A DNA stretch of 64,000 nt, taken from positions 137,054-201,053 of the forward strand of contig JAZRLA010000015.1 in NCBI GenBank assembly GCA_045646605.1. Direction: 5' to 3'. The notes beneath the pieces were generated by a model that saw nothing but the letters and a program-made list of their open reading frames with translations, had not been told where the DNA came from and searched no databases. Shown in pieces: positions 1 through 58,432 of the stretch. Each line of letters begins with the position of its first letter. Position 1 is the first letter of the stretch. The position numbers were made by a program, and so were the translations under genes. Origin of the DNA: Candidatus Enterousia sp. GTDB taxonomy: Bacteria; Pseudomonadota; Alphaproteobacteria; Rs-D84.

Positions 1-191
1 TATGGGGCGTCCGGGATGTCAAAAAATGGGGTTACGGAAAAAAGTGTGCTTGCCAGAATCCAACAAGAAGCCGAAACACCATATGAAAACAAAAAGAAAG
101 CAAATATAAACAAACTTCGCAATATCAACGTAAAGAAAAAAAATATGCTGACATCAATTTTGGAACACCTTGATAAATTGATTTAAAAAAT

Positions 192-785
192 ATGAATCAA
201 TACAACGAATTTTTGGATTCTTGGAATCATGTTCTGGGATACGAAACACCGAGGCATCATCAAGAAATGACAAATTTTCTTGCCAATGTCACCGAAGGCG
301 ATTCGCATCGTGGGTTACTTATGGCGTTCAGGCATTCCGGAAAATCAACAATTGTTGGAATTTTTGCCGCATGTGTGTTATATATGCGTCCTGAAACACG
401 AATTTTAATTTTATCTGCGGAAACACATTTGGCAACACGAATGGTTATGCATATACGGCATATATTGGAAAATCATCCATGGTGCGTCGATATGATCCCC
501 AAAAATAAACGTGAATGGGCAGAAAACAAAATAACAATCAACAGACCGATCGGCATACGTGAACCTTCGGTTGTTTGCCAAGGTATCCACGGAAATATAA
601 CGGGTATGCGTGCAGATTTAATAATATGTGACGATGTCGAGGTACCAAATACATGCAACACAATAAAAAAACGTGGTGCGCTGCGTGAAAGATTAAGGGA
701 ACTGGATTTCATCCTTTCACCACACGGCACCATGATTTATATTGGAACGCCACATACACTGGATACGATATATCGCACAAATTAA
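192..785 (+). CDS. phage/GTA-like terminase large subunit, N-terminal ATPase fragment (gene appears split)
   Basis: Walker A 'RHSGKST' and Walker B 'DLIICDDVE' motifs. ORF stops at 785. The matching nuclease half resumes at about 4160 on the same strand. Confidence 0.6.
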   Translation: MNQYNEFLDSWNHVLGYETPRHHQEMTNFLANVTEGDSHRGLLMAFRHSGKSTIVGIFAACVLYMRPETRILILSAETHLATRMVMHIRHILENHPWCVDMIPKNKREWAENKITINRPIGIREPSVVCQGIHGNITGMRADLIICDDVEVPNTCNTIKKRGALRERLRELDFILSPHGTMIYIGTPHTLDTIYRTN

Positions 786-1435
786 TCCTTGCCATGTGAT
801 GGCATAGAACTTGTCAAACCATGTAAACGATGTAACAGTTCTTTACCTTCGTTCCCAAACATAGGAAGATAAGTTTCATATTCCGGCATATCAACCTGAA
901 GATTTGCGCGAACACGATCAGTTACCGGTTGTGCAAGGATTTCATTCGCAATATTCCAAATTTGATACGCTTTGGATACACGAACAATGTCATCAAATTT
1001 TTTCAATTCTTCGTGATTGTTGGCCAATACGTTTCGTGACATCGTAACCCAATCAGTCCCAAATTTTTTTATGATTGGGTTATTCATAAATTCATCCATA
1101 CCTTCTGGGGTTGGATTAAACGAATCAACCGCCGAAATAACTTGCTGTAATTCTTCGGGCACTATATTGGTGACGACCGTTGATTCGGCCATCATACCAC
1201 CATATGGCAATAATTCTTGCGCAATAGAATCCATCGATGTGACACCATCACGCAGGTTTTTGATATGTTGAACCAACATTTTCCCCGTCGGCAAATCTTG
1301 CAATTCACGCAGAATCTCATCGTTTGCCTCGTTAACAAAAACCTGATTTACCGCGCTCCACCCGCCAACAATAACATGCGCCTGGCGGTACAGATTCAAA
1401 AGTTTCTGTGCGGTAACACTTGTCTTTGCCTTCAT
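782..1435 (-). CDS. hypothetical protein, part of the inserted module
   Basis: 217-aa ORF with no recognisable motifs. Lies inside the segment that separates the terminase halves. Confidence 0.35.
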   Translation of the reverse strand: MKAKTSVTAQKLLNLYRQAHVIVGGWSAVNQVFVNEANDEILRELQDLPTGKMLVQHIKNLRDGVTSMDSIAQELLPYGGMMAESTVVTNIVPEELQQVISAVDSFNPTPEGMDEFMNNPIIKKFGTDWVTMSRNVLANNHEELKKFDDIVRVSKAYQIWNIANEILAQPVTDRVRANLQVDMPEYETYLPMFGNEGKELLHRLHGLTSSMPSHGKD

Positions 1436-1453
1436 CTCGATTACTCCCCCGGG

Positions 1454-2464
1454 TTATTCACTGATGAACATTATGACCTTATGCATCGTTGGCGCCGAAA
1501 TCTTTTCGTCGGGTGAAACCATTTGACCATAGACCTTACCCTTTGAATCTTTGCGTACAATCGCGATATTCGCAGACACAACCTCTTCAGATTTAAGGGT
1601 GCTGAAATCTTTATTGATAAAAACAGCCAAATCGCCAACATTAACATCGGCCTTGGTATCGGCAAAAATATAAGATTTTTCAGGTACAAATCCACCCAAA
1701 CGCTTGGAATTTGGTATAACCGCGTAAACACCGCGACGACCTTCAAGATTTGCCGGGGCCGCGATCATATTTGAATCCGACCTTTTGAACGATAGGTTCT
1801 TGCCATCTGGTTTGCCAAATACGGGAATCAATTTGCGACGCGCATTATCATAAAGCTTTGCACCATACAAATGCCCGTGCATTTCATCAAAATCACCCGC
1901 CGAATCCCCAGGCACCAAAACGGCCTTTACACGTTCTTGGACCTTGTTCATTTGTTTCGCTAATTCGCCAGATTTGTAAAGTTCCGCAATTTTATCAAAC
2001 AGGCTTTCGACAGAATGTGCAAAAGATTTCGCCAACGGTTCAATTTCGTTTTTATAAACCTCGCGTTGTCCGACCTCTATCTTGTGATAAACCGAAAGTG
2101 TCATACCGGCGTCCTTGGCCGCTTGGGCAATTGTTTTGCCGGATTGTTGACGTATTTTGCGTAATCCACTGCCAAATACTTTAAGTCCACCATCTTCGTT
2201 GTCGTTCATACGACGTGTGATTTCGGTTTGCCACTTGGATGCAACTTCATCAGTATCCTTGATAAAAATGTCGGACAATTTGCACCCCAATATATTGCAT
2301 ATATTCAATAATTGTTTCTGATTAAGGCGCCGCACACCCTTTTCAATCTTGGAAACGGCGGACAAAGACAAATTTGAACGACGTGCAAGTTCGGTCATTT
2401 TCATGCCCGTCGCAAGCCTTATATTACGAATATTGTTTGGAAAAATGATTTCTTCTTGGGCCAT
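1454..2464 (-). CDS. XRE-family repressor-like protein with two HTH domains and a C-terminal S24 (LexA/CI)-like domain
   Basis: Two HTH_XRE-like segments ('MTELARRSNLSLSAVSKIEKG' and 'IAQAAKDAGMTLSVYHKIEVG'). C-terminal region resembles the S24 peptidase fold ('DSNMIA'). Confidence 0.5.
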   Translation of the reverse strand: MAQEEIIFPNNIRNIRLATGMKMTELARRSNLSLSAVSKIEKGVRRLNQKQLLNICNILGCKLSDIFIKDTDEVASKWQTEITRRMNDNEDGGLKVFGSGLRKIRQQSGKTIAQAAKDAGMTLSVYHKIEVGQREVYKNEIEPLAKSFAHSVESLFDKIAELYKSGELAKQMNKVQERVKAVLVPGDSAGDFDEMHGHLYGAKLYDNARRKLIPVFGKPDGKNLSFKRSDSNMIAAPANLEGRRGVYAVIPNSKRLGGFVPEKSYIFADTKADVNVGDLAVFINKDFSTLKSEEVVSANIAIVRKDSKGKVYGQMVSPDEKISAPTMHKVIMFISE

Positions 2465-2537
2465 TTAAAGTCTCCTTGGATAAATCTTGACAAAATAATA
2501 AGGGATTTTTTAAACCATGGCAAGGAAAAAGTTTTGG

Positions 2538-2625
2538 GGTGGTTAGTGTTAGTGGCTAGTGGTTAGTAAACTCTGGAACTTATCCATAATTGTGAACAAA
2601 ATCCAAAGGTTACTAACCACTACTC
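2538..2625. repeat. palindromic repeat element A, copy with a divergent core
   Basis: Left arm GGTTAGTGTTAGTGGCTAGTGGTTAGT and right arm TACTAACCACTAC flank a CTCTGGAA...core. Overlaps the dnaB stop codon. Confidence 0.55.
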
Positions 2626-4287
2626 AAATTCATCGGGAATTTCATCGATGTCAATCGGCGTTGGGGCGTCAGTTGGCCCAGGAACCGGCGATACATCGGG
2701 TGCAAATTCAACCGTGCGACCCGCCATTTCATTAAGGTTATCGAACAAACTATATTCAGCCAAGAACGCAACCGTAACCGTATCTGTTCGACCGTGACGA
2801 TTTTTACCAATGATAATATCAGCCTTGCCCTTGGCCTTTTCAAGTCGGTTTTGCCATGAATCAACAGACTTTTCACTTGGTGTATTTGAAAGTCGCCGCG
2901 ATGGATCACGGTTTTGCAGATAATATTCTTCGCGATATGTGAACATAACAATGTCTGCATCTTGTTCAATAGAGCCCGATTCACGCAAATCGGCAAGTTG
3001 TGGCCGTTTATCATCGCGATTTTCCACACTGCGCGACAATTGTGAAAGTGCGATAACCGGAACACTAAATTCCTTGGCCATCATTTTAAGACCACGCGTG
3101 ATTTCGGATAATTCCTGAACACGATTATCACTGCGTTTACCCCCCGGCAAAGTTAGTAACTGCAAGTAATCAATAACGATAAGCGCAATTCCGTTATATT
3201 TCCGGGCAAGCCGTCGCACGCGTGTGCGAATCATCGGCAAAGACATCCCTGGGGTATCATCAATAAACAATGGAATTCGTCCGATTGCATCGGAAAATTG
3301 CGCCATTTTAAGGAAATCTTCATCAGTTAAAGAACCTTCACGCATCGCGGACGATGGAATTCGTGCCTGGGATGACAAAACACGTGCCGCCAATTCGGAT
3401 GCACCCATCTCTAAGCTGAAAAACGCAACGGCACCTTTATACTGTTCATTCGCGCGACCAGAAAAAATCGCATTTGCCGCATTAAACGCAATATTCATGG
3501 CAAGTGTGGTTTTACCCATACCCGGGCGTCCCGCGATGATAAGTAAATTTGATTTATGCAATCCACTTATTGCACGGTCCAAATCGGTAAGCCCAGTGGT
3601 CAGCCCAGAAAGTTTCCCATCGGCTTTGTACGCGATTTCTGCTTCGGCCAGTGCATCCTTTAACGCATTTGCAATTGGTACGACATCACGCGACGCATCC
3701 CCGGTCATTGCAAGATTGAATAACTTTTGTTCGGCGGATTCGATTTGTGATGATACCGGGTTATCAAGGTCTTCAACAAATGCCGCATCGGTAACGGATT
3801 GCCCAAAATCAATAAGTTCGCGCCGCACCGCATTTTCGTGAACAATTCGCCCATACTGTTCAACATTCACGACCGTTGCGCCGGCGCCAGCCAATTGAGT
3901 CAGGTATTCAACCCCACCAACCGATTCCAATGTTCCCTGTTGATCAAGGTAATTTTTTGCCGTGATTATATCAAAAGGAATTCCGGCGGCAAATTGGCGC
4001 AGGGCAAGTTTATATATTTCCTGGTGCGCGGGATGTGAAAAATCTTCGGGTCGCAGAAATTCGGAAATTTTTTCCAATGCGCGATTTTTCATCAAAACCG
4101 CGGCAAGGACGGCCTGTTCGGCCTCTAAATTAGTCGGTAAAGTTTTGGGAGTAAAGTCCATGCCAAACATAGTATACGAAAAAAATGTTTTTTCAACGCC
4201 TTTTTTATCGGGATATGCGGAACTTAAAATTCCAATAGTCGACAAAGATGGAACCGCGGCATGGCCGGCGGTTTTTCCCATAGACAA
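2620..4287 (-). CDS. dnaB: replicative DNA helicase DnaB
   Basis: DnaB N-terminal domain followed by RecA-like core with 'GRPGMGKTTLA' Walker A and 'IVIDYLQLL'. True start may be the internal 'MFGMDF'. Acidic C-terminal tail. Confidence 0.85.
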   Translation of the reverse strand: MSMGKTAGHAAVPSLSTIGILSSAYPDKKGVEKTFFSYTMFGMDFTPKTLPTNLEAEQAVLAAVLMKNRALEKISEFLRPEDFSHPAHQEIYKLALRQFAAGIPFDIITAKNYLDQQGTLESVGGVEYLTQLAGAGATVVNVEQYGRIVHENAVRRELIDFGQSVTDAAFVEDLDNPVSSQIESAEQKLFNLAMTGDASRDVVPIANALKDALAEAEIAYKADGKLSGLTTGLTDLDRAISGLHKSNLLIIAGRPGMGKTTLAMNIAFNAANAIFSGRANEQYKGAVAFFSLEMGASELAARVLSSQARIPSSAMREGSLTDEDFLKMAQFSDAIGRIPLFIDDTPGMSLPMIRTRVRRLARKYNGIALIVIDYLQLLTLPGGKRSDNRVQELSEITRGLKMMAKEFSVPVIALSQLSRSVENRDDKRPQLADLRESGSIEQDADIVMFTYREEYYLQNRDPSRRLSNTPSEKSVDSWQNRLEKAKGKADIIIGKNRHGRTDTVTVAFLAEYSLFDNLNEMAGRTVEFAPDVSPVPGPTDAPTPIDIDEIPDEFE

Positions 4288-5008
4288 AATAGAAAAAATT
4301 CGTAAAACGGTCGGAGAAAGGTATTTTTCAGCACAAATGATGTTGCAATTTGTTGCGCCTGATAAAATACGCCTCGATCCGGGTGGTATAAAGTTTTATG
4401 ATACTGACTTTGATCCGCACAGTTGCCGAATTGGTGATACACCAATAACTGGGGCAACAATTTATTGGGACCCATCGGGCGGTCGACGAAATTCTGATAA
4501 CAGTGTTTGTGTCATTATTTATCGCGATGACCGAACGCACCGGGTTTTTATCCACGATATAATTTATATCGTTGTCCCAGACGCAATTCAATATCCGCTT
4601 GCCTATCAATGTGAAAAAGTTCTTGGGTTTGTGCGTGCGCATCGGCAAAGGGCGCTCTGTCTTGAAACAAATGGAATCGGTGCGGCATTGCCGGAAATAA
4701 TGCGCGAAACAATTTCACGCGCTGGTTACGAAATACAAATACGTCCAATAACCAACAGCCGTCGCAAAGAAGACAGAATTTTGGACGCGATTGAACCATT
4801 GCTTACGACCGGACGTTTTTACGCAAATCGACGTATAACCCAGACACCATTTATATCAGAAATGTTGGCATGGACCCCGATTGGCAGTTCCGAACATGAT
4901 GACGGATTGGACGCAGTCGCGGGTGCAATTTTATGTTCGGCCACACCGATGCGGCCGATTGGAACAAATGTTCACAATTACATTGCGAACACAGATTTTA
5001 AACTTTAA
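4160..5008 (+). CDS. terminase large subunit, C-terminal nuclease fragment
   Basis: Continues the terminase after the about 3.4-kb opposite-strand insertion. The six-frame ORF 3962-5008 has a spurious N-terminal extension that overlaps dnaB antisense. Confidence 0.5.
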   Translation: MPNIVYEKNVFSTPFLSGYAELKIPIVDKDGTAAWPAVFPIDKIEKIRKTVGERYFSAQMMLQFVAPDKIRLDPGGIKFYDTDFDPHSCRIGDTPITGATIYWDPSGGRRNSDNSVCVIIYRDDRTHRVFIHDIIYIVVPDAIQYPLAYQCEKVLGFVRAHRQRALCLETNGIGAALPEIMRETISRAGYEIQIRPITNSRRKEDRILDAIEPLLTTGRFYANRRITQTPFISEMLAWTPIGSSEHDDGLDAVAGAILCSATPMRPIGTNVHNYIANTDFKL

Positions 5009-5023: not shown

Positions 5024-6250
5024 ATGAAATATGACTTACAAAAAATGTATTCACGTGCATTAAACCTGCGCGAACCATGGCTGAAACGCTGGTCGGATGC
5101 GCGCCGTTATACAATGCCAACAACCGATGAAGAAATCGCGACATTGTTTGATGGAACGGCGGCGGATGCGGCGGACAATCTTTCGGCATGTATGTATTCA
5201 TTGCTAACGCCACCGGAATCATTGTGGTTGAACCTTGTCCCTGAATCCGAAGAATCACCGGACCCGGTTGCGGCAACTATGGCATTACGTTCGAATCTTA
5301 ATGAATCTAACTTTTATACAACTGTTCATCAATGTTATATGGATTTGGTAACAATGGGAACGGCGTGTTTGTTTATGTCTGAATCACCAATTGGTGCGGC
5401 AAGTGCATTTAACTTTACGGCAATCCCGATGACGGACATCGCGATTTTGCCGAATGCGGTATTTCATACTGCAACCGTTACCGCCCAAGATGTCGCGCGC
5501 CGTTATCCTGAATGGACGCCACCACGTGCAATCGTTGACGCAATAAAGCAAAATCCTGAATATCAATTACGCCTGGTCCAGGCATTAATTGATACCGAAT
5601 TCACTGCATGGATAGATGCGGGTGGCAATATTGAAAACAATATTGTTGCGACCGGCACATTCGAAACAAACCCATACATCATATTCCGTTGGGCGTTGGC
5701 GAGTGGCGAACTTTACGGTCGCGGTCCAATTCTGCGTGCATTACCCGATATCAAAACTGCAAATAAAGTTGTAGAATTGGTCCTTAAAAATGCGACAATC
5801 GCGGTCAGTGGTATATGGCAAGCCGATGATGACGGGGTCATAAACCTTAGTAACATCAATTTAACACCTGGTGCAATAATTCCCAAAGCGGTGGGCAGCA
5901 CCGGCCTAACGCCACTTGCGACGGGCGCGAACTTTGATGTGTCACAGATAATTTTGAAAGACCTGCGTGAACGCATCCGCCACACAATGCTTGCGGACAG
6001 AATCGGCACGCTTTCGGACAAAGAAATGACCGCAACGGAAATACTTGCGCGGAACGCGGACATGCTGCGCATATTGGGCGCGACATATGGACGATTGCTG
6101 CACGAATTTATCCGCCCGCTTTGCGACCGCGGACTTCAAATTTTGGCGCGGCGCGGCGTAATCGACAAAATATCACTGCACAGTGATGCGGAATTAAAAT
6201 ACATCGCACCGATTGCACAAATGGTCGCGGAAAACGGCACATTGATATAG
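5024..6250 (+). CDS. phage portal (head-to-tail connector) protein
   Basis: 408-aa ORF directly downstream of the terminase with an RBS. Synteny and overall portal-like composition support the call. Confidence 0.5.
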   Translation: MKYDLQKMYSRALNLREPWLKRWSDARRYTMPTTDEEIATLFDGTAADAADNLSACMYSLLTPPESLWLNLVPESEESPDPVAATMALRSNLNESNFYTTVHQCYMDLVTMGTACLFMSESPIGAASAFNFTAIPMTDIAILPNAVFHTATVTAQDVARRYPEWTPPRAIVDAIKQNPEYQLRLVQALIDTEFTAWIDAGGNIENNIVATGTFETNPYIIFRWALASGELYGRGPILRALPDIKTANKVVELVLKNATIAVSGIWQADDDGVINLSNINLTPGAIIPKAVGSTGLTPLATGANFDVSQIILKDLRERIRHTMLADRIGTLSDKEMTATEILARNADMLRILGATYGRLLHEFIRPLCDRGLQILARRGVIDKISLHSDAELKYIAPIAQMVAENGTLI

Positions 6251-6259
6251 GGGGCGCGC

Positions 6260-6466
6260 ATGGAAAAAATCGCACACGAATACGCCCGCACTTTTGCAGG
6301 GCCGTCCGGTCGGGCGGTCATTGACCACCTGCGCCGGATAACAATCGAAAGGGTGTTGGGGCCGCACGCAACGGACGCAGAATTGCGAACGCTGGAGGGT
6401 GCGCGCGCAATCGTGCATCAAATTGAAACACTAATTGAACGGGGACGGAACAATGCCAAAATCTAA
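6260..6466 (+). CDS. hypothetical small protein in the phage-like cluster
   Basis: 68-aa ORF placed where GTA/phage head clusters carry a small ORF after the portal. Confidence 0.25.
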   Translation: MEKIAHEYARTFAGPSGRAVIDHLRRITIERVLGPHATDAELRTLEGARAIVHQIETLIERGRNNAKI

Positions 6467-6710
6467 TGGATTCGCAAACATCATCGACACATTGCGCAGT
6501 GGTTGGTTCCTTATCGCGTTTATTGCCGGCATGATATATTGGGTCGCGCGCCAAGATAACGCCCTGGTCGAACTTGACCGATTGACGACACGCATAACGA
6601 CACTTGAAAACCGGACAACGATTTTGGAAACCGGAATAGGGCAATTACAACTAAAAATCGACGGCATCAAAGAAGACCTGACCATCATCAAAACAGCGGT
6701 GATAAAGTAG
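6435..6710 (+). CDS. small membrane protein with coiled coil (holin-like or unknown)
   Basis: One TM helix ('WFLIAFIAGMIYWV') followed by a heptad-like region. Confidence 0.3.
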   Translation: MNGDGTMPKSNGFANIIDTLRSGWFLIAFIAGMIYWVARQDNALVELDRLTTRITTLENRTTILETGIGQLQLKIDGIKEDLTIIKTAVIK

Positions 6711-6726
6711 TGTTAGTGGTAAGTGT

Positions 6727-6814
6727 AAGTGGTTAGTATACTCTGGAATAATTTCGCAATTACGGATTGATTCCAGAAGACGACTAACCACTAGAAAGCG
6801 TTTTTTGAATTTAA
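6727..6814. repeat. palindromic repeat element A (canonical copy)
   Basis: Arms GTGTTAGTGGTAAGTGTAAGTGGTTAGT and ACTAACCACTAG flank the palindromic core TTCTGGAATAATTTCGCAATTACGGATTGATTCCAGAA. Confidence 0.7.
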
Positions 6815-6835: not shown

Positions 6836-6864
6836 TTGACAATGTGTGTTTTCTGTGCTATTAT
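6836..6864 (+). promoter_or_regulatory. near-consensus sigma70 promoter for the 6897 gene
   Basis: TTGACA, 17-nt spacer, TATTAT. An AAAGAG RBS precedes the ATG at 6897. Confidence 0.5.
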
Positions 6865-6896: not shown

Positions 6897-8183
6897 ATGA
6901 CAGAATTAAATAAAAAATTCGGCTTTACAGAAGAACAGTTAGAACAGTTTGATGACGATCTTAGAAATGGCGGAAGAGACGGTAGAAGAGCACAAATACC
7001 CAAAGAGGTTTTGGCGATACTGGGTGATTATTACGTGCAATTGATTGAAAAATCCGTTCAGGCGACCGAAAAAGGTATGTCACACGAGGATGACATAGCT
7101 TCAGTAAGTCACCCTTTGTGCCATATTTACGAAGATGGTTTGATGGCCAATGAATTATATCGCCCGATTGGTGATATTTTGTTAGATAAATTGATTGAAA
7201 AGGCCGAACAGGGGTATTACAGCCATGCAAATCGTTCAATAGATGGTTATTGGCGCAGTGTGAAAGATAATAAAGATGCCCAGAAAGGATTGAAAACGAT
7301 ATTAGAAAAACATCCTAACTATGCATTTGGGCAGAAATATTTATCATACATGAATGGTGCCAGTCCCGAAGACGAAATGGCGATGATACAAAGTTATATT
7401 GAAAACCCAGATATGTATTTTGTTACCACAATTATGGTCGATATTGATGGCACACTTATTCGAAACGGTAAAGCCAATGATAATTTGATAGATTCAATTA
7501 TTGGTCGTAAAAATATCGCCATTTATACGGGTGGGGACCCCGTGAGCCAAAAGAAAGTTCTTGTAAAGGCAATCGCAGAAAAAATTTTGGAAAAATTCCC
7601 TTTGATAAAGGAAGATTTTTCTGTGGATACTATTGTAAATATTTATTCCCAAGATAATGAACAGAATATAGCATTGCGTGAGAAGTTATCACGCACACTA
7701 AGAGACAAAATCTGGGGTTTGTTTTTCAACCAAGAACCTGGCAATAAAGTTGATGCCCATATGATAGATGATATGGCGAACCGGGCTAAACGTATTTTGG
7801 AATTTCTAAATCGTTTAACGGCAACAGGTGGTGATCAGATTAAAATTTATCCAAAACAGGCATTCGCGCAGGAAAATATTTGTTTGGCCGACACTGTGAT
7901 TGATGATACCCAACCAGCCGCCCAGGGAATGAAAAGTCTTTATTCAGCGTGTCTGACCCCAGGTGAATCCCCGTTTTGGGTGAAAGAGATCAGGGGTGTC
8001 GAAAGGGGAATATCCAAAGAACGCGAAATAACGGCAGAGCAAGCTTTTGCTATGTATCAGCAAAAATGTAAAGAAAACATGATTGCGGGCGCTAAACAAG
8101 TTGATAAGCTAAGTGCTACCGAACAGAAAGCAACGGCTTTTTCTGATTCGTGTAAAACCGATGTTAAAAAAACTACTAGATAG
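6897..8183 (+). CDS. hypothetical protein with a central HAD-like phosphatase motif
   Basis: 'FVTTIMVDIDGTLI' matches HAD motif I (hhhhDxDGTL). Large flanking regions are unknown. Bracketed by A elements. Confidence 0.45.
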   Translation: MTELNKKFGFTEEQLEQFDDDLRNGGRDGRRAQIPKEVLAILGDYYVQLIEKSVQATEKGMSHEDDIASVSHPLCHIYEDGLMANELYRPIGDILLDKLIEKAEQGYYSHANRSIDGYWRSVKDNKDAQKGLKTILEKHPNYAFGQKYLSYMNGASPEDEMAMIQSYIENPDMYFVTTIMVDIDGTLIRNGKANDNLIDSIIGRKNIAIYTGGDPVSQKKVLVKAIAEKILEKFPLIKEDFSVDTIVNIYSQDNEQNIALREKLSRTLRDKIWGLFFNQEPGNKVDAHMIDDMANRAKRILEFLNRLTATGGDQIKIYPKQAFAQENICLADTVIDDTQPAAQGMKSLYSACLTPGESPFWVKEIRGVERGISKEREITAEQAFAMYQQKCKENMIAGAKQVDKLSATEQKATAFSDSCKTDVKKTTR

Positions 8184-8196
8184 TACGAAACCAGAA

Positions 8197-8371
8197 TAGT
8201 GGGTAGTGTAAGTGATTAGTGTTAGTGCGGGCGCGTTTGCGCCCGTTTTTGCGACACCCCGGCCTGCGGCCACCCCTCTAGCCAGATGGGAACTTTGCTT
8301 TCTGGAATAATTTCACAATCACGGATTGATTCCAGAAACTACTAACCACTTCCCACTAACACTAACCACTA
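8197..8371. repeat. palindromic repeat element A with embedded hairpin and element B
   Basis: Contains the A arms and core, the hairpin GCGGGCGCGTTTGCGCCCG, and a B copy at about 8253-8295 (GACACCCCGGCCTGCGGCCACCCCTCTAGCCAGATGGGAACTT). Confidence 0.7.
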
Positions 8372-9513: not shown

Positions 9514-10169
9514 TATTTTTCTTCCACCAAGATCCGTTGTACATTGAACACAAATACCAACGCCGGATCAACACCGCGTTTCAATGCACCATGAATATCC
9601 CCATCTTTGACATCGCCGATTGCCCCAACCCAATTGTCACCACCCAAGTCAAGGTACATCGTTCCGCGCGTTATCTTTGGGCTTTCCGTCATGTCATTTG
9701 GTTTATACCATGTTTTCAGTTCATAATCAACCCGCCAATAATTACTTGCCGCCGGGCGATAGATTCCATTAAACACGGTCACCGTCCGTCGCGCCCCGGC
9801 TGTAACCAAACTTTCAATTTCCGGCAATTCGTTTTGCCGCCAATATTCCAACGCCGCCGCGCCCGACATTATGCGCAGTGCCGAATTTCGCGCGGTGCGC
9901 CGTTCAATATCCGCATCATCCGGCACAACATAAAAATATTCCGTCACATATTTTTGAATCAACCAATCGCGCAATTTGCGTTTTCCAACCTCCGCCCAAG
10001 AATGCGGCATTCCGGGCAAATCATTTGATTGAATACTGGTGCGCAAGAATCGCGGTTCCACGGCAAACTTTTCGGAAGTGTCATAGATGGACGCAGCAAC
10101 ATAAATCGCACCAAAGACCATAATCATGGTCGCAAGCCCGAATAAAAATCCGATCAGTTTCTTCATCAC
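9513..10169 (-). CDS. bitopic inner-membrane protein with periplasmic NTF2-like domain (VirB8-like or Tim44-like candidate)
   Basis: N-terminal TM helix. C-terminal domain is paralogous to the next ORF. Four-base overlap suggests an operon. Confidence 0.4.
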   Translation of the reverse strand: MMKKLIGFLFGLATMIMVFGAIYVAASIYDTSEKFAVEPRFLRTSIQSNDLPGMPHSWAEVGKRKLRDWLIQKYVTEYFYVVPDDADIERRTARNSALRIMSGAAALEYWRQNELPEIESLVTAGARRTVTVFNGIYRPAASNYWRVDYELKTWYKPNDMTESPKITRGTMYLDLGGDNWVGAIGDVKDGDIHGALKRGVDPALVFVFNVQRILVEEK

Positions 10170-10864
10170 TGTTCCCTGTACGCGTTAAATTCCGCCACGT
10201 AAAACCCAAGTGTTTGCGGGTACCTTTCCGCATTACGTGCGATTTTCACATACGCAATCACATCAAAATCGCCGTTCAGGTTTGACCGCACCGATGTCCG
10301 AACAATCCAGGTGCCACCATCTTTGGTTATTTCGCCATTGGGCATAACGCTAATCTTTTTTGTGTCGACATTCCAACGTTGGCCCACACCCTCATACGAA
10401 CGATACATCGGCAAAACTTTTTCGGCAAAGTAACGGAACATATTGTCACCCGCCATACAATACAAATCACAACCAACATCCGATTCAAAGGTATTACTTA
10501 TCCGGTTGACACAATCAGCGTTACGATCACACTGTGCCCAATTCTTGGAATTTAACGCCGGATCATCGGAAATAGTGAACCATTTTTTTGTAAAAACCCC
10601 TGCCAATGCCCGCTGTGCCGAATCATAATACGGCACAATGATATTTTTGCGAACCTGGCCCACCAATTGCCAATTCCCGCGCATTCCGTCAACATAAATC
10701 ACATACGGACTGACGGTGCGGCTGTTTTGCAACCACGGTATCGCGATGCAACATGCGATGGTCAAAAAGAACGCGACCATCACCCACACGCCAAAGGTGC
10801 GTGAAATCGCAATCCGTTTTCCTGCGGAAAATGCGGGCGTATCAAAATCTTCTGGGTAATCCAA
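10166..10864 (-). CDS. bitopic inner-membrane protein, paralog of the 9513-10169 ORF (VirB8-like candidate)
   Basis: Short cytoplasmic N-terminus, TM helix ('VWVMVAFFLTIACCIAIPWL'), periplasmic domain with a shared 'W.VD...P.G...G.W...VK' pattern. Confidence 0.4.
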   Translation of the reverse strand: MDYPEDFDTPAFSAGKRIAISRTFGVWVMVAFFLTIACCIAIPWLQNSRTVSPYVIYVDGMRGNWQLVGQVRKNIIVPYYDSAQRALAGVFTKKWFTISDDPALNSKNWAQCDRNADCVNRISNTFESDVGCDLYCMAGDNMFRYFAEKVLPMYRSYEGVGQRWNVDTKKISVMPNGEITKDGGTWIVRTSVRSNLNGDFDVIAYVKIARNAERYPQTLGFYVAEFNAYREQ

Positions 10865-23162: not shown

Positions 23163-26100
23163 ATGCCGACGAATGAAAAATTAAACGAAAATACCAAGAT
23201 TTATGACAAAAATGTTGCCCGTTTTGCTAAGCGAATTGCCGCGGCTTATGGTGACGCCAAGGTTCGTCTTTTGGCTTCGCGCGATGTTCGTCGTGCGGTC
23301 CTTTTGCGCGATATTGATGCCATAAATAATGTTATTGCCAAGGTTCCACAAATGTCGGCGGGACTACGTTTGGATTTTTGCGATGCCTTTGTTGGTGAAG
23401 ATATGTCGGGACTGGATTTAGCCACACCGGCAATTTTGGCGGATGCGTATCGCGCCATTTCCGCGCGTGTCAAAGAAGGGGATGCAAAACAGCAAGAACG
23501 TCTTGATAAAATTGCGGCGCGTATCGACGATTTATCCGCGGATTTTGCAAATTCTGGCGGCATGGTGGTAAGCCAAAATGAATGGCCATTGGTTGATATG
23601 TCGAATATTGCCAATATTTATGAAGGTTTCGGCAATATGCTTGATGCACGTATCGTGGATGTGGACGTGGATAAAAATCCAGAAAAAGTCGCAGAAATGC
23701 AGGCAAACAAAAAACAGATAGAAACGGTTGTTTCGGATTATGATGGGTCTTGGGGGCTTGGAAAGTTGCGCGCCGAAGATGCACCAAAATTGGCGGACCG
23801 TTGGGACGAAATTTATGCCATGTTGAACCGTGCAAAAATCTTTGATGAAACCAAGGAAAAAACCGCAAAATGTAAGTTTTTGGATGCCCGTGGTAATATT
23901 ATTCCGCAGTTCAAGTCTAATAAACGTGGCGACACGAAAAGATATGAAGAATACGATGTTGGGTTCGATATTGCCAAAGATGGTCGACTTGCATCCATTG
24001 TTGAACTTGCGCGTCATAATGTCGCAAAAAGACACGTTGCAAATTTTGATGACAAAATCGATGAAGATACGCTTGAATCTGAATTAAACGAAGAAATTTT
24101 GAGTGTTTTATATGAGGTTTACGCCGCAGACCAAGTTGCCCAGGATGCAACCAAAACCCCAGAACAATTTTCTGACCCTGAATTTCGTGCGGAATTTATG
24201 ACCGCCCTTAATGAAATGGGTAAAGAAATTTCAGATAATGGATATAACGTCGCAATTGAAACACAAACCGATGCAACCGTTGGGTGGGCAGCGCGTATTA
24301 AAAGCAAATTAGGTGCGGCGACCAAGAAACTCGATGGATTGTGGACGCGTGCTAATCGGCCACTTGATAGAATTGATGATATGGCGGATGTTCGTATGTC
24401 GCGCGGGGCGGTTGCGCGTCGTAAAAAACGTCGTGAATTTTGTTGGCGTATTTTAAAGGGTTTTAACAGTTCGTTTATCGTAAGTGCGCTTATTACGGTG
24501 ATTGCAGCCGCGGCGGCGGCAAGGTTGGGCGTGTCACTTGCGTCGGGACTTGCCATGATTGGCGGCGGCCTTGCGCTTGGGATGATTGGTTTCCAAGTTG
24601 CGCGTTGGATTAAAAATCAAAAAAAGAATAATTTACCGGTCAGTTTAGAGGAGTTTTTCAAGGATAAACAGTTGGTACGTTCAATTGTGACCAGTGCGCT
24701 TGCAATTGCGGCCATGGGACTTGGTGCGGCTGGATTGGGTGCCGCCGCAATGACCGTTGGTGTTGGTGCGGCGTTACTTGGCGCATACAATAATGGACGC
24801 GGTGTATTCGAAGCGGCGCGTGATGTTAAAATGTCGCACCGTCAAAGAATCGCATGGGCGATTGCGAATGCCGGATCGGTCATTGCGGGTGCGCTTGGCG
24901 GCGGTTATGTTGGACGCGGATTGGTCAGTATGTTTAACCGTTTGTATCCGGGTAACACATTTTTCCAAAATAAAGAAACAGTTGAAGGACCAAAGCGCAA
25001 GGTTTCTGACGAAATCACGCACGAAAGGACAACCAGACATTATACAGATGATATGTTAAGAAGCGCCAAGGATGCCGTGGAAGATTGGTACGCGCACGAT
25101 TATCCAAATCATCCGGAAATATTGCAACAGGATATTGATGCCGTAAATCAGTACAATGCGGACCATGATACCAACCTTGATCCATATCGTATATTGCGCG
25201 CAATGAAAACATCGCAACCATCACGTTTGGTATATACCGAGGGTTGGACCAATGCACATAACATTTCCCAAGAAACAATTGCTCAGGCCGCAAATGCGGT
25301 TGGTGGTGGAACCTATAATCCCGCGGGCATAGAATCCGCACGTTTGATAGATGCAAATATGGGTACCCAAGGCGAAGTGGGCCCGGTTGGGGATTTTACA
25401 AATAAAACCTATTCACCGATTACGGAATTACCAACCGACAAAATCGAAACCGTTGTTGATCAACCGGCGGTTTACGAGCAAACATATAACGATACATACA
25501 AACCTGTTGATGTAAAGCCTGGATATGGCGCATTCGGAAATTACACGCCACGTGAACGCATTAATGATCGTATTGCTTCTTTCCTTGATCGTGTGCGTCG
25601 TGGTCGGCGTGCGGAATCAAAACCGACGTTGGAACCAAAACCGACATATGTTCCGCCAATTACCAGCATAAAAGAACCCGCAGACAAAAAATTACAAGGT
25701 TTTGAATCGGATACAAAAGATAAAAAGCCGACATATGTTCCGCCAATTACCCACATAAAAGAACATGCAGACAAAAAATTACCGGATATATCACTTGATC
25801 GTGTGTTTCCGAAACCGGCTTTTGACGATACCGAAGGGCACCTGCGTCGCATACGTGATGCATACCGGGATTTAAAAACCCAAGATGTACCTGTGGCCCC
25901 CGAAAAAACGGACGTCGCACCAAAACGTACGTCTGTTTTGGCGGTGACATACGCGCGTGCAAAAAAATGGGACGAATTGCATGACAAATTGGACGAAGTC
26001 AGGAATAAAATAATGAATTCTGCGCTTGGTGCGGCAAAAAGTGCGGAACTTAGGGCCCAAGAAAAGAATATTATCCACAAAATAGAACATTTATATAATT

Positions 26101-28262
26101 ATTTTGGACGGCCGTCTATGGATGAACTTGGCGCTGCACTTGCCAATGCGTATCGCCGTGAATATGTATATCATATGCGTGCAAAACCCGATGAAAAACA
26201 TTCTTCGCACAAGACGGTTCGTGATTGGAATGAAAAACACGAACGTTTGTTGAAAAAAATGGAATTGTATGGTTGGGATGAACCTTTGGACGGCGAAAAT
26301 CTTGATTTTGCCGCTCCAGTTATGGGCGTTCAGGCGCAAAAACAGGTTGTTCGTGGCCAAAAATATGAACAAGAACGTTTGCAACGTGAAGAGGCCGAAC
26401 AACAGAAAGTAAAAAATTTACGTTTGCCGGTCTTGATGTACAGACCTGAAAAAAAGAAAAATAGAAGATTTCATAAACCCTTTGAACAGGAAAAACCCAT
26501 AATTTTGGCGGACCTTGGGACGGCACTTGAAAATGTCCAGGCAAAGGATGGACAACAAGTTGGTGATAGAAAATATTTTGTTCCAGATGCCCTTAGAAAT
26601 TTGGCCGGAAACAAAAATTTGTTCACAGAACCGCTGATTGAAATACGCGGTGTGCCGGTTAACCTTATCGATTTAACGGGGCAGAATAACCCAATTACAC
26701 AAAGTGAAAATCGCGTAATGGTTATGGTAGATGTTGATGGATTGCGGATGCCGTTCTTCCTTGCCAATGGCGATGAAAAGTTTGAAAATATTAAACCCGG
26801 GAAATGGTATCCGGCATTCGATTTATCGCGTGACGGTTCGTGGCGTTTTTGGAAAACGGCGGAATACCTTGATTCGAAAAGAGGTGAAACATCCGAGAAA
26901 ATTGATGAGATATCCAAAACATTGAACGAAGTTATTGGTGATATAAGGAATTACAGGGATACCAAGGCAACAACCGAAAATGAAATACGCGGATTTGATG
27001 GTTTTGTCGGCGGTGTGGACGCCTTTGACCGTGTTGATCCCGATATCATAGTAAATATGACCGAACATCAACCAAATGATTTGGGCAAATATATGTATTG
27101 GTTAAGTTTGGGGGACAAAATGACGGGTGCGTATGTGCCATATATAAAATGGTATTTTGAAAATATTAAATCACCCGATTATGCCCCAGAAGAAAAAAAT
27201 TGGCTTGATGAAATAATTGAAAAACATCAGGACACCGTGCAAAACGTCAAGAGCACCGCCAAGAACGTCGTGCAAAACGTCAAGAGCACCGCCAAGAACG
27301 TTGTGCAAAACGTCAAGAACACTGTCCAGGAACGTCGTGAAAAACGTCAAGAACGCCGCCAAGAACGTCGCGAAAACCGTTCCGGCATTATATCAAATGC
27401 GGATGTCGAAAACGTGTTACCCGGGGACATGATGCTACCGGTTTCTGAACCTGTTCAAAAACCGATTGAAAAACACATTGATGAACCAAAGCCGGTTGAG
27501 CCGGTGGTTGCGCAAAACGGCCTTGGAACGGTGCTTGAAACCGCAATTTACAAAAATGAACACGACACTGGTGGTGAACACAAAGTGCCCGAATCTTTGA
27601 TCGATTTGGCACGTCGGCCGGATATTTTTTCCACGCCAATTACGACCATACGTGGTGTACCGGTGAAATTGGTTGATATCACGGGACACAATAACCCATT
27701 CACCCAAAGTGAAAATCGCGCAATGGTTATTGTCGATGTTAATGGCCAACGTTTACCATTTTACCTTGCCAATGGGAACGAACGTGGTGTGACGGGGGTC
27801 GCGGGTGTTTGGCGACCGGTTTTGACCCTTGATCGTACCGGCCGGTGGTATATAAATTCAAATGATCATGTTGATTCCAAAGAGTTAAATACGATCATCA
27901 ACGCGTTGAATGAACACATCGGCGACATACGGAATTACAGGGATAAAACGGCCACACATACACGAATGGAAATAACAGGGGACAAGGAAAATTTTGTTGG
28001 TGGTGTTGATGCCATTGACCAGGTTGATCCAAACAAAATCTTGGATATCATAAGGGCGGGCAACACAACCAATGATGATGACATTATATGGTGGCCTTAT
28101 GGTGGGGGTGCATCGTGGCATGCAAAACCGGGTGCCGTTGCAAAGTTTTTACGTGGGGTAGAATCGCCCGATTATCGCCGATCAAGAGGTTTTCTGGAAA
28201 AGTTAGAGGAAGGATTAGGCCGGCGGTTTAAACGGTTTAATAGGGATAAAAAATACGAATAA
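23163..28262 (+). CDS. giant (1699 aa) multi-domain membrane protein with duplicated C-terminal domains
   Basis: Continuous ORF. TM cluster at about aa 430-590. Tandem repeats at protein and DNA level. Two paralogous modules of about 170 aa. Confidence 0.6.
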   Translation: MPTNEKLNENTKIYDKNVARFAKRIAAAYGDAKVRLLASRDVRRAVLLRDIDAINNVIAKVPQMSAGLRLDFCDAFVGEDMSGLDLATPAILADAYRAISARVKEGDAKQQERLDKIAARIDDLSADFANSGGMVVSQNEWPLVDMSNIANIYEGFGNMLDARIVDVDVDKNPEKVAEMQANKKQIETVVSDYDGSWGLGKLRAEDAPKLADRWDEIYAMLNRAKIFDETKEKTAKCKFLDARGNIIPQFKSNKRGDTKRYEEYDVGFDIAKDGRLASIVELARHNVAKRHVANFDDKIDEDTLESELNEEILSVLYEVYAADQVAQDATKTPEQFSDPEFRAEFMTALNEMGKEISDNGYNVAIETQTDATVGWAARIKSKLGAATKKLDGLWTRANRPLDRIDDMADVRMSRGAVARRKKRREFCWRILKGFNSSFIVSALITVIAAAAAARLGVSLASGLAMIGGGLALGMIGFQVARWIKNQKKNNLPVSLEEFFKDKQLVRSIVTSALAIAAMGLGAAGLGAAAMTVGVGAALLGAYNNGRGVFEAARDVKMSHRQRIAWAIANAGSVIAGALGGGYVGRGLVSMFNRLYPGNTFFQNKETVEGPKRKVSDEITHERTTRHYTDDMLRSAKDAVEDWYAHDYPNHPEILQQDIDAVNQYNADHDTNLDPYRILRAMKTSQPSRLVYTEGWTNAHNISQETIAQAANAVGGGTYNPAGIESARLIDANMGTQGEVGPVGDFTNKTYSPITELPTDKIETVVDQPAVYEQTYNDTYKPVDVKPGYGAFGNYTPRERINDRIASFLDRVRRGRRAESKPTLEPKPTYVPPITSIKEPADKKLQGFESDTKDKKPTYVPPITHIKEHADKKLPDISLDRVFPKPAFDDTEGHLRRIRDAYRDLKTQDVPVAPEKTDVAPKRTSVLAVTYARAKKWDELHDKLDEVRNKIMNSALGAAKSAELRAQEKNIIHKIEHLYNYFGRPSMDELGAALANAYRREYVYHMRAKPDEKHSSHKTVRDWNEKHERLLKKMELYGWDEPLDGENLDFAAPVMGVQAQKQVVRGQKYEQERLQREEAEQQKVKNLRLPVLMYRPEKKKNRRFHKPFEQEKPIILADLGTALENVQAKDGQQVGDRKYFVPDALRNLAGNKNLFTEPLIEIRGVPVNLIDLTGQNNPITQSENRVMVMVDVDGLRMPFFLANGDEKFENIKPGKWYPAFDLSRDGSWRFWKTAEYLDSKRGETSEKIDEISKTLNEVIGDIRNYRDTKATTENEIRGFDGFVGGVDAFDRVDPDIIVNMTEHQPNDLGKYMYWLSLGDKMTGAYVPYIKWYFENIKSPDYAPEEKNWLDEIIEKHQDTVQNVKSTAKNVVQNVKSTAKNVVQNVKNTVQERREKRQERRQERRENRSGIISNADVENVLPGDMMLPVSEPVQKPIEKHIDEPKPVEPVVAQNGLGTVLETAIYKNEHDTGGEHKVPESLIDLARRPDIFSTPITTIRGVPVKLVDITGHNNPFTQSENRAMVIVDVNGQRLPFYLANGNERGVTGVAGVWRPVLTLDRTGRWYINSNDHVDSKELNTIINALNEHIGDIRNYRDKTATHTRMEITGDKENFVGGVDAIDQVDPNKILDIIRAGNTTNDDDIIWWPYGGGASWHAKPGAVAKFLRGVESPDYRRSRGFLEKLEEGLGRRFKRFNRDKKYE

Positions 28263-28296: not shown

Positions 28297-28340
28297 GGTT
28301 ACCCCACTAACCACTAACACTTGCACTAACCACTTTTTTA
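28297..28340. repeat. partial element A (right-arm CACTAACCAC repeats only)
   Basis: GGTTACCCCACTAACCACTAACACTTGCACTAACCAC. Confidence 0.5.
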
Positions 28341-28380: not shown

Positions 28381-29328
28381 ATGAGAAGTAGGATTTTATC
28401 TTTTTTTGCCGTTTTATGCGGTTTATCTGCGGGTTCGGCGTTTGCCAATTGGCAATATGCGGGCGGTTCGCTTTATGATACGGGGTACGGTGATAACGGT
28501 TCGCGCGTAACGGTATCGTTCCGTGGCGGGGCGTCGCTTGCTTTTTCCAAGATAAAAAATGATGTTGGGTCCGTTGTCTATTCCTATTGCGTTGACCCTG
28601 TGACCGGCGACATTTATCCGACCGATTCAGATGGCGGGTGCCCCAGCGGTGATGCTTTTGCCGGGACCGGATCCCTTGGGTCATTAGGCGCCGAAAACAT
28701 GCACGAAATTGGTTTTTCGGCGGGTGCAAGTATTGGATGGGTTTTACCCCAAACACCACAATGGCGAATTGAACTGGGGTGGGATCATTTTAGCAAAGTT
28801 GATTACAATAAATCACCATTATTTTCCGGCAATATGCCACTTTCCGAAGGCTATTCTGTGCACATAGATAGCGGCAGTGTTCAATCCACAATGTCAACGG
28901 ATATCATAAGTGTAATGGCGTATTACGATTTCTTTGATGGGTTGCAAAAACCGATTCGAAAAGCAATACCGTATATTGGTCTTGGGTTTGGTTATGCCGA
29001 TACCCAAACGGTGATGAACCTTGCAGATCCCTGGGGTGACTTGTCCGGTGTCGAAGATTTGACCAATTTTGGAACGGTAAATTCGAATGGTGTTTTACAG
29101 TTTTATCGTTCAACCACAAATACAACAAATGTTGCGGGGATTGTGGCACTTGGCTTTTCGTTCGGCATAGATGAAAACTTGTTTGTTGACTTTGGTGCGC
29201 GCGCGGCGTATTTGCCACGTGTAAAGTATGCGCTTGTGAATTCTGATGATACGCGTCATTTGGATTGGTTCAGTGCGAAAAATCTGATATACGCGAATGT
29301 TATGCTTGGTCTGCGCATTGAATTTTAG
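28381..29328 (+). CDS. outer-membrane beta-barrel protein
   Basis: Signal peptide, alternating amphipathic strands, C-terminal '...LGLRIEF'. Confidence 0.55.
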   Translation: MRSRILSFFAVLCGLSAGSAFANWQYAGGSLYDTGYGDNGSRVTVSFRGGASLAFSKIKNDVGSVVYSYCVDPVTGDIYPTDSDGGCPSGDAFAGTGSLGSLGAENMHEIGFSAGASIGWVLPQTPQWRIELGWDHFSKVDYNKSPLFSGNMPLSEGYSVHIDSGSVQSTMSTDIISVMAYYDFFDGLQKPIRKAIPYIGLGFGYADTQTVMNLADPWGDLSGVEDLTNFGTVNSNGVLQFYRSTTNTTNVAGIVALGFSFGIDENLFVDFGARAAYLPRVKYALVNSDDTRHLDWFSAKNLIYANVMLGLRIEF

Positions 29329-35854: not shown

Positions 35855-35940
35855 ATCCTAATCATACCGAAATATATCGGCACAATTCAATAAAAATTTC
35901 ACTAACCACCAACCACTAAATATGATAAAATACATACATA

Positions 35941-58285: not shown

Positions 58286-58432
58286 TGGATAGTGGCTAGT
58301 GTAAGTGGGTAGTGTAAGTGAACCACACCCCGGCCTTCGGCCACCCCTCTCTAGAGGGGAACTTTATATTCTGGAATAAATTCGCAATTACAAACTAATT
58401 CCAGAACTCACTAACCACTAACACTAATCACT
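58286..58432. repeat. palindromic repeat element A with embedded element B
   Basis: Contains the A arms and core. B copy at 58322-58364 (ACCACACCCCGGCCTTCGGCCACCCCTCTCTAGAGGGGAACTT). Confidence 0.7.

Follow-up and report, generated by a model that had tools for sequence, protein, structure and literature searches.

A putative two-part T7-type large terminase around an inverted dnaB cassette in a particle gene cluster of Candidatus Enterousia

The large terminases (TerL) of tailed phages are, to our knowledge, treated as single polypeptides. In the 64-kb stretch of DNA from Candidatus Enterousia sp. analysed here (the window, whose positions serve as coordinates) the matches to such an enzyme are spread over two open reading frames (ORFs), which are separated by 3.4 kb of genes on the opposite strand, including a full-length gene for the replicative DNA helicase DnaB; the same was found in all relatives examined. 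This raises the question whether a packaging gene was destroyed by an insertion or whether the enzyme is made from two chains, and what a helicase gene does in its middle. We give a probability of roughly 0.7 to the answer that the window carries part of a vertically inherited, domesticated podovirus-like particle cluster, similar to gene transfer agents (GTAs), with a genuine two-subunit terminase.

Candidatus Enterousia belongs to the gut and rumen Alphaproteobacteria of the order Rs-D84. The genomes of its metagenome-assembled genomes (MAGs) have 0.75-1.0 Mb and are reported as reduced (PMC12306168). Relatives of the locus were collected by a tblastn scan of species-representative genomes, which gave 184 matches, of which 104 are below 72% identity; the best 80 loci, all from Candidatus Enterousia or unnamed gut or rumen alphaproteobacterial MAGs, were read over 20 kb and studied in detail. 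A second sample consists of 50 IMG/VR contigs (loci L095-L144). Junctions were scored in 79 loci, and gene order was judged in each locus as far as the contig extends. No Enterousia isolate was found among the records and papers retrieved, the sequences being all from MAGs and metagenome contigs. In the literature no paper was found on the Enterousia locus, on Rs-D84 prophages or on a terminase split by dnaB, and an exact look-up of the window's own N-terminal terminase piece returned no record.

The two parts of the terminase

The first piece, TerL-N (192-785, plus strand, 197 aa), has the features of the Rossmann-type ATPase core of a T7-type large terminase. It matches positions 273-459 of phrog_38, Pfam Terminase_6N and positions 2-190 of 500 of the NCBIfam model NF033889 (termin_lrg_T7), and alone it scores 226.7 bits against the cut-off of 150 of the latter. 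Walker A (FRHSGKST), Walker B (LIICDDVE) and motif III (GTP, within IGTPHT) align with those of intact TerLs, and the protein ends 10 residues past motif III ('IGTPHTLDTIYRTN*'). The second piece, TerL-C (4160-5008, plus strand), matches positions 479-707 of phrog_38, Terminase_6C and Terminase-T7_RNaseH-like. The acidic motifs WDPS, ETNG and HDDGLDA of its RNaseH-like nuclease are kept and are aligned with those of intact TerLs. The mechanically called ORF of 348 aa was over-extended; conservation in relatives points to the ATG at 4160, which gives the N-terminus 'MPNIVYEKNVFSTPFLSGY...', and the alignment of its 'PFLSGY' with intact TerLs supports this as the true start.

On the solved T7-like TerLs 8dgc_E and 4bij_A, TerL-N aligns to residues 44-211. 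The cut therefore separates the Rossmann core with motif III from the lid, within the ATPase domain, and does not fall at the linker between ATPase and nuclease. In TerLs the lid subdomain caps the ATP site and has a flexible linker to the nuclease (PMC5389665). The Enterousia lid would belong to TerL-C, together with the rest of the ATPase domain.

A genuinely two-piece terminase was among the readings that a first-pass annotation of the window had offered, and the alignment to intact TerLs strengthens it. Both pieces and their orthologues from two relatives were compared with seven intact proteins of 451-510 aa and about 50% identity, which an exhaustive search of representatives had yielded. 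The pieces abut cleanly and zero residues are lost; they meet in a short, poorly conserved loop between '...GTPHT..TIY' and 'PFLxGY'. Judged by sequence, 192-785 and 4160-5008 are two parts of one T7-type TerL. With the one-piece T7-type enzymes (NF033889; 4BIJ, 8DGC) they have in common the fold family, Walker A and B, motif III, the acidic motifs and an adjoining T7-type portal, and they differ from them in being two ORFs 3.4 kb apart, each with its own stop or start signals.

The short length of the first piece is a property of the whole family, since each of the best 120 of 855 TerL-N homologues has 183-215 aa, at 74-100% identity. One further short protein similar to TerL-N (P0141) results from an in-frame stop on a 1.2-kb contig, and two others considered as such cases (P0260 and P0121) were set aside, their contigs being too short to interpret. 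There is also no leftover sequence that could represent intein halves, as phrog_38 matches TerL-N up to residue 195 of 197 and TerL-C aligns from residue ~12 or earlier.

A T7-type TerL in two ORFs was also found in an unrelated bacterium (L092/L093, 10001-11480, on a 1.47-Mb contig), at 44% and 30% identity. There the same loop is broken, with an 8-nt ATGGGTGA overlap of the two ORFs and no insert, which suggests that this loop is a permissive place for cutting the enzyme. The TerL of L092/L093 carries a variable linker of PKFPE repeats, and no capsid or portal genes are found near it. Enzymes encoded as separate polypeptides with presumed reassembly are also described from jumbo phages, namely DNA polymerase III alpha and RNA polymerase subunits (PMC7824862). 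Those splits lie within phage genomes, whereas the gap in Enterousia is filled by an inverted cassette of host type whose regulatory signals overlap the terminase genes. In Enterousia the cut between ATPase core and lid plus nuclease is a natural one that selection has maintained in many species, and it offers a direct test of whether a packaging motor can work from two chains.

Both pieces belong to a conserved layout. The 80 best genome loci are colinear with the window, with one deletion variant (L085) as the sole exception, and so are 50/50 of the IMG/VR contigs; the synteny in relatives thus bears out the arrangement first noted in the window. The order kept is TerL-N (+), a 217-aa ORF (ORF217, -), a regulator gene (-), dnaB (-), TerL-C (+), portal, a Bbp19-like gene and orf91. 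The ratios of nonsynonymous to synonymous substitution rates (dN/dS), rough values with dS near saturation (~1.2-1.3), are 0.064 for TerL-N and 0.108 for TerL-C, compared to 0.068 for DnaB, 0.070 for the portal, 0.074 for the regulator and 0.083 for orf91; ORF217 (0.21) and the Bbp19-like protein (0.22) are higher. Clean split, catalytic motifs in both pieces and purifying selection as strong as that on DnaB all speak for a two-piece enzyme.

Mean pairwise protein distances are 0.15 for the capsid, 0.20 for the portal and DnaB, 0.23 for TerL-N and the regulator, 0.32 for the host protein LipB and 0.40 for TerL-C. The distance matrices of the cluster, cassette and lipB genes correlate (Spearman 0.55-0.88), which argues for co-divergence with the host rather than horizontal spread. 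By these measures the cluster is inherited vertically with its host under purifying selection, and the layout with the split terminase is evidently an anciently fixed and selected one in Enterousia.

The inverted cassette and its junctions

The 3.4-kb cassette between the TerL pieces contains ORF217, the regulator gene and dnaB, all on the minus strand. The genes listed in the first-pass annotation (the opposite-strand 217-aa ORF, a regulator with two helix-turn-helix (HTH) domains, a full DnaB and a portal gene behind) are all present, with corrected starts for dnaB and TerL-C.

The dnaB gene (2620-4161, minus strand) encodes a full-length replicative DNA helicase of 513 aa. The mechanical ORF of 555 aa was over-extended, and conservation in relatives indicates the ATG at 4161 (MDFTPKTLP...). 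The protein comprises the N-terminal domain PF00772 and the C-terminal RecA-like helicase domain PF03796. It scores above the equivalog cut-offs of NF006606 'replicative DNA helicase' (595 vs 540 bits) and TIGR00665 (502 vs 385) and stays below those of phage_DnaB (405 vs 498) and of the SPI-7 type (375 vs 655). NF006606 corresponds to PRK09165, which we take to be the alphaproteobacterial DnaB model. The best true phage DnaB matches are 41-43% identical. The top 'phage' match (MT835812, 49%) was rejected, as it is actually a bacterial contig mislabelled as phage. According to these sequence comparisons the DnaB is of the chromosomal, that is the host, type. The suggestion of the first-pass annotation that the essential helicase may be located in phage-derived DNA is consistent with this assignment.

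A second dnaB was found neither in the 64-kb window nor in any fetched 20-kb locus, and in two species with the rpsF-rpsR-rplI operon in the fetched flank no dnaB follows rplI. This agrees with a host-type helicase that serves as the working copy, and the dnaB of the cluster may be the only replicative helicase gene of the cell. Public virus catalogues (P0323; IMG/VR L095-L144) label the locus including this gene as viral, with the entry 'DnaB-like replicative helicase [Caudoviricetes sp.]'. Virus-mining pipelines thus already call a chromosomal locus viral, host dnaB included.

The regulator gene (1454-2464, minus strand) encodes 336 aa with two Xre-type HTH domains (HTH_3 at residues 12-65 and about 97-148, with a match to HTH_31 as well) and a C-terminal domain of ~150 aa without family match. 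It had been described as a dual-HTH repressor of the CI/LexA type. The sequence bears out both HTH domains. In the C-terminal domain, however, neither Pfam nor a profile search of the PDB detects an S24 peptidase, and hhalign against E. coli LexA and the S24 repressors of two related elements (L147 and L175) stays below 1% probability. The candidate catalytic Ser lies outside the columns conserved to at least 90%. The single-sequence AlphaFold2 (AF2) model, with a predicted local distance difference test (pLDDT) of 32, is unusable. In L147 and L175 an opposite-strand HTH-S24 repressor is encoded close to terL, and the regulator has possibly descended from a repressor of that kind. Its promoter (TTGCCA-17-TATTAT) and Shine-Dalgarno (SD) sequence AAGGAG lie at 2472-2523 on the minus strand. 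The promoter is conserved, and in relatives a palindrome TTGAC-N9-GTCAA covers the -10 hexamer, which plausibly represents an autoregulatory operator.

ORF217 (782-1435, minus strand) lies in the same orientation 19 nt 3' of the regulator gene and encodes a clade-restricted, all-alpha orphan protein of 217 aa. It has no family match in Pfam, PHROG, NCBIfam or PADLOC. Among its 731 homologues the 120 listed have ~212-229 aa, and the named ones are unnamed proteins of 'Alphaproteobacteria bacterium' MAGs. The AF2 model (pLDDT 80) is wholly helical and has no fold match in the PDB or BFVD.

At both ends the cassette overlaps the terminase genes in 4-nt palindromes common to the opposing genes. 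At 782-785 the sequence TTAA holds the stop codons of both TerL-N (+) and ORF217 (-), a 4-nt overlap that recurs in 61/79 loci. At 4159-4162 the sequence CATG contains the ATG of dnaB (-) as well as that of terL-C (+), with 2 nt in common; it is the start junction in 56/79 loci. Among the other 23 loci, 20 were scored with a downstream ATG and still show CATG at the dnaB start; where loci were read frame by frame (e.g. L036 and L050), that downstream ATG is in frame with TerL-C. The three loci L083-L085 have CAT followed by another base at the dnaB start. In each of two MAGs the whole locus occurs twice, as differing copies on separate contigs (L043/L060 and L073/L084), and the junction variant of L084 is that of L083, which belongs to a different MAG. 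Mixed bins explain this better than true duplication.

The signals for the two start codons lie inside the respective opposing gene. The dnaB promoter (4169-4196, minus strand; TTGAAA-16-TACTAT) is located in codons 3-13 of terL-C and is kept, with an upstream A-tract, in 68 unique relatives. Codon homozygosity at synonymous sites of terL-C is 0.88 in codons 1-10 and 0.76 in codons 11-20, compared to a gene mean of 0.50. As the -10 hexamer ends 7 nt from the dnaB ATG, the dnaB mRNA is probably leaderless. A subclade with an insertion of 19-25 nt has gained an AAGGA Shine-Dalgarno sequence before dnaB. In the other direction, the SD-like GGGAG of terL-C (4147-4151, plus strand) is antisense to dnaB codons 4-5, and every locus has a purine-rich counterpart (GGGAG, GGGGG or AGGGG). 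That the start codon of an apparently essential dnaB overlaps a phage packaging gene and its promoter lies in it represents an unusual degree of fusion between host and viral genes, which hints that the control of replication and the production of particles may be connected.

No repeats were found at the cassette junctions, where the first-pass annotation had proposed to look for them, that would mark a site of insertion, excision or inversion. The only repeat near a junction is a pair of 21-nt arms with 81% complementarity, the first of which sits at the left junction and its partner in the promoter of the regulator gene. By a rough estimate, repeats of about 21 nt occur by chance in 7 kb.

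The particle gene cluster and its interpretation

The window carries the right-hand part of a cluster of ~12.3 kb. It begins with the 3' end (1-186, plus strand) of a gene that is cut by the window edge and encodes 115-116 aa in relatives; in tblastn the 116-aa protein of L001 shows 40% identity over 1-183. It has no family match and is possibly the small terminase subunit. Behind TerL-C follow on the plus strand the portal gene for a T7-type head-to-tail connector (5024-6250; Head-tail_con, E = 9e-80), a gene for a small Bbp19-like phage protein (6260-6466; PF25181), whose position is conserved in relatives, and orf91 (6435-6710), the last gene of the cluster. The orf91 product has one predicted membrane helix and a coiled-coil-like tail and is 59-97% identical in relatives; its orthologue in L001 gives a weak match to phrog_736.

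The 5' side is known from the 65 loci that reach there. They contain in order lipB, a lysin-like gene, o78, a T7-type scaffold, the major capsid gene (Phage_capsid_2), o76, a tail-tube A-like gene, a nozzle/tube B-like gene, the 116-aa gene and TerL-N. The host gene lipB adjoins the cluster in every locus whose contig extends that far, and no integrase or excisionase is found in or beside the cluster. The first-pass annotation had noted that no protease or capsid genes follow the portal. This is true downstream, but it is an effect of the window edge, as the capsid genes lie immediately upstream of TerL-N in relatives. T7-type heads use a scaffold and require no protease.

Between scaffold and capsid some relatives encode a 105-aa Lys/Ala-rich protein (L001, 5641-5958) with a match to the histone-H1-like HC2, which may be a DNA-condensing internal protein. 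Small insertions between terL-C and portal or between portal and the Bbp19-like gene occur in L040, L065, L080 and L079; that of L065 (14976-15311) is a 111-aa ORF with a lipoprotein-like N-terminus, a hydrophobic stretch followed by Cys.

The leaders 5' of the first cluster gene were compared among relatives. All 61/61 unique leaders contain a strong promoter TTGAC[TA]-N16-18-TAnnnT, which is followed by intrinsic terminators, two in 43 leaders and one in 18; an example with tandem terminators is found between lipB and the lysin gene of L006 (4206-4312). Rfam detected only tRNAs in the leader and the loci. Like in the late control region of lambda (PR', tR', Q), a sigma-70-type promoter precedes one or two intrinsic terminators, and this likeness implies control by antitermination or attenuation. 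Unlike in lambda, no Q-like protein or other antiterminator was identified in the Enterousia cluster, ORF217 being without fold match; the leader, whose function is putative, lies outside the window.

Outside Enterousia the closest relatives, of which IMG/VR contains 305 by their portals, have 55-63% identical capsids and 41-44% identical portals; some of the 305 are apparently located in isolate genomes, judging from their identifiers as uncultivated virus genomes (UViGs). Among them are 80 IMG/VR loci (L147-L226) of small podovirus-like elements with a GC content of 0.35-0.73, many of them bounded at ~18 kb; they may be phages or GTA-like elements. L147, L175, L088 and L091 share with Enterousia a homologous portal, Bbp19-like protein, scaffold, capsid, o76 and two tail-tube genes, in the canonical order portal, Bbp19-like, scaffold, capsid, o76, tube A, tube B and, further on, TerL. 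The order in Enterousia is rearranged, with the lysin first and the portal after TerL. Both kinds have an opposite-strand regulator near the structural operon. L147 furthermore encodes a GTA_holin_3TM family holin, and a collagen-like fibre protein is found in L175. Wherever the contig includes terL (e.g. L147, L088), the canonical-order elements have a single-ORF T7-type TerL and no dnaB, and none of the 80 related elements contains homologues of dnaB, regulator or ORF217 near the cluster. The split and the cassette are therefore regarded as innovations of the Enterousia lineage.

GTAs such as RcGTA and FpGTA and the Enterousia cluster are alike in having structural genes without genes for integration or self-replication, a fixed locus, vertical inheritance and purifying selection. 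The head module is T7-like in Enterousia and not HK97/RcGTA-like as in RcGTA. We know of no GTA with a split terminase or a nested essential replication gene. Only few GTAs are known, and they are listed mainly in Alphaproteobacteria, none of them from human-gut commensals before FpGTA of Faecalibacterium, which is reported as the first podovirus-like GTA-like element (PMC12946183). A phage satellite of the type of phage-inducible chromosomal islands (PICIs), including capsid-forming ones, was dismissed because the cluster lacks an integrase, occupies a fixed locus and co-diverges with its host.

Most likely the cluster functions as a domesticated, inducible GTA-like particle system. It would encode a compact T7-like head and a short tail, and TerL-N, as Rossmann ATPase core, and TerL-C, as lid and nuclease, would assemble non-covalently to package DNA. 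The break would lie in a permissive surface loop into which the 3.4-kb inverted cassette was wedged, and compaction may then have fused both systems through TTAA, CATG, the dnaB promoter in terL-C and the ribosome-binding site of terL-C in dnaB. Read-through of the tandem leader terminators could switch on the cluster, with transcription then running through the cassette in antisense before it arrives at terL-C and the portal gene. The particles made would probably be GTA-like and carry host DNA. The locus is a strong candidate for a domesticated podovirus-like system of DNA transfer or particle production in genomes of ~0.75-1 Mb, which retain little dispensable DNA.

Beyond this, the nesting itself might be functional. 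With a two-subunit TerL, and with the only helicase gene and the regulator gene placed head-on inside the late operon, late antisense transcription could silence dnaB and the regulator by collision and antisense RNA and so commit the cell to particles and lysis with replication shut down, and the essential gene could shield the cluster against loss as the genome shrinks. We consider this a tentative and rather improbable extension.

Several points weigh against the GTA-like particle system with a two-subunit terminase. All sequences come from uncultured MAGs and metagenome contigs, so that the cluster is known from its genes alone, and the saturation of dS mentioned above makes the dN/dS values rough. 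The evolutionary rate of TerL-C is about double that of TerL-N. Synonymous conservation inside dnaB shows no clear excess that would indicate a conserved promoter for terL-C and portal. Tail fibre or receptor-binding proteins, internal ejection proteins and a confirmed small terminase are not recognisable in the cluster; they may be encoded elsewhere or absent. Furthermore, the deletion variant L085 (9635-14345) has two clean deletions, from capsid residue 70 to the 116-aa gene and from TerL-C residue 86 to Bbp19 residue 16. It retains TerL-N and the cassette as well as the 5' end of terL-C with the promoter. In this single MAG the cassette is the indispensable part and the particle genes are dispensable, and the cluster as a whole is thus not indispensable.

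The loss in L085 demonstrates that the module can be lost, and together with the 3.4 kb of opposite-strand genes interrupting terL it invites the explanation that a decaying prophage or GTA remnant is seen, in which terL was destroyed by the insertion and its pieces persist as pseudogene fragments for the sake of the overlapping cassette signals. The dnaB promoter in terL-C and the ORF217 stop codon over that of TerL-N do impose some constraint from the cassette, but it accounts for only ~20 codons of terL-C, and apart from TerL-C of L085 both pieces are intact ORFs wherever they are reached in the 80 genome loci and 50 IMG/VR contigs, with dN/dS of 0.06-0.11. A decaying head module, as the first-pass annotation had considered, is also at odds with a module that is intact and syntenic in nearly all relatives and whose capsid and portal evolve no faster than DnaB and more slowly than lipB, and genomes of ~0.75-1 Mb should not be able to carry along 9 kb of dead DNA in so many species. 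We hold decay for highly improbable. An active temperate Enterousia phage, with the cassette as its own lysogeny and replication module of repressor and phage DnaB, is likewise very unlikely. Pairs of HTH repressor and DnaB-type helicase are common in temperate early regions, as PHROG matches indicate, related elements do carry an opposite-strand S24 repressor near terL, and virus-mining pipelines do call the locus viral. However, the cluster spans only ~12 kb, lacks fibre and ejection genes as well as integrase or excisionase, is located beside lipB wherever the contig reaches and co-diverges with host genes. Its DnaB scores as the chromosomal equivalog and not as phage_DnaB, it shares no more than 43% identity with phage DnaBs, and no dnaB is found nearby in the 80 related elements.

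Bacterial genes which are interrupted and later rejoined by excision are known. An intact terL might correspondingly be restored when needed, through site-specific excision or inversion of the cassette, for which the skin element of sigK and the regulatory switches of phages are examples, or through trans-splicing of the proteins, and producer cells that lyse could afford the loss of dnaB. The cassette, however, encodes no recombinase and is flanked by neither direct nor inverted repeats; at one junction lies a stop codon and at the other a start codon that has its own SD sequence, which indicates separate translation, and matches reaching to within two residues of the TerL-N stop and starting at TerL-C residue 12 or before leave no room for intein halves. 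Restoration is the explanation we credit least and we consider it next to negligible. Unlikely, although less far-fetched, is a cluster kept for another function, such as a nanocompartment for protein or DNA, a killing particle or a role of TerL-N together with the replication cassette. Such a function would agree with the lack of recognisable fibre and ejection proteins, with a TerL-N that is much more conserved than TerL-C, and with its intactness in L085, where capsid, tail, portal and most of TerL-C are deleted. On the other hand, L085 is a single MAG, and the jointly conserved genes comprise portal, both TerL pieces with intact ATPase and nuclease motifs, scaffold, capsid, tail tube and lysin, which is the gene set of a DNA-packaging and lysing particle.

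Intergenic repeats and neighbouring genes

Directly past the dnaB stop codon lies a long hairpin of AGTGGTTAGT repeats (2538-2622), which may end the dnaB transcript. A second copy (6706-6800) marks the right end of the cluster. The motif occurs in 24 copies in the window compared to 1.2 expected, with intergenic hairpin sites at 2538-2622, 6715-6792, 8198-8370, 28306-28334, 35901-35917 and 58284-58432, usually just past stop codons. It looks like a REP-like or terminator-like element of the genome. A role of the hairpins as operators, near the regulator promoter and at the cluster end, was considered and rejected, since the repeat is a genome-wide intergenic one.

Directly past the cluster a low-GC patch (0.35-0.39) contains an orphan gene of 428 aa (6897-8183), which is preceded by a near-consensus promoter (6836-6864; TTGACA-17-TG-TATTAT). 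It was found in 0/85 genome and metagenome loci and is present in one IMG/VR contig, and it probably represents a recent acquisition in a variable slot.

Farther downstream, 23163-28262 is occupied by an ORF of 1699 aa without Pfam match, in a lineage with MAGs of 0.75-1.0 Mb. The genes at 10166-10864 and 29325-30851 encode a weakly VirB8-like protein and an ATPase similar to ComM and Mg-chelatase, respectively. Both sit among housekeeping genes, those for YraN, BamA, RseP and an Asp/Asn-tRNA synthetase.

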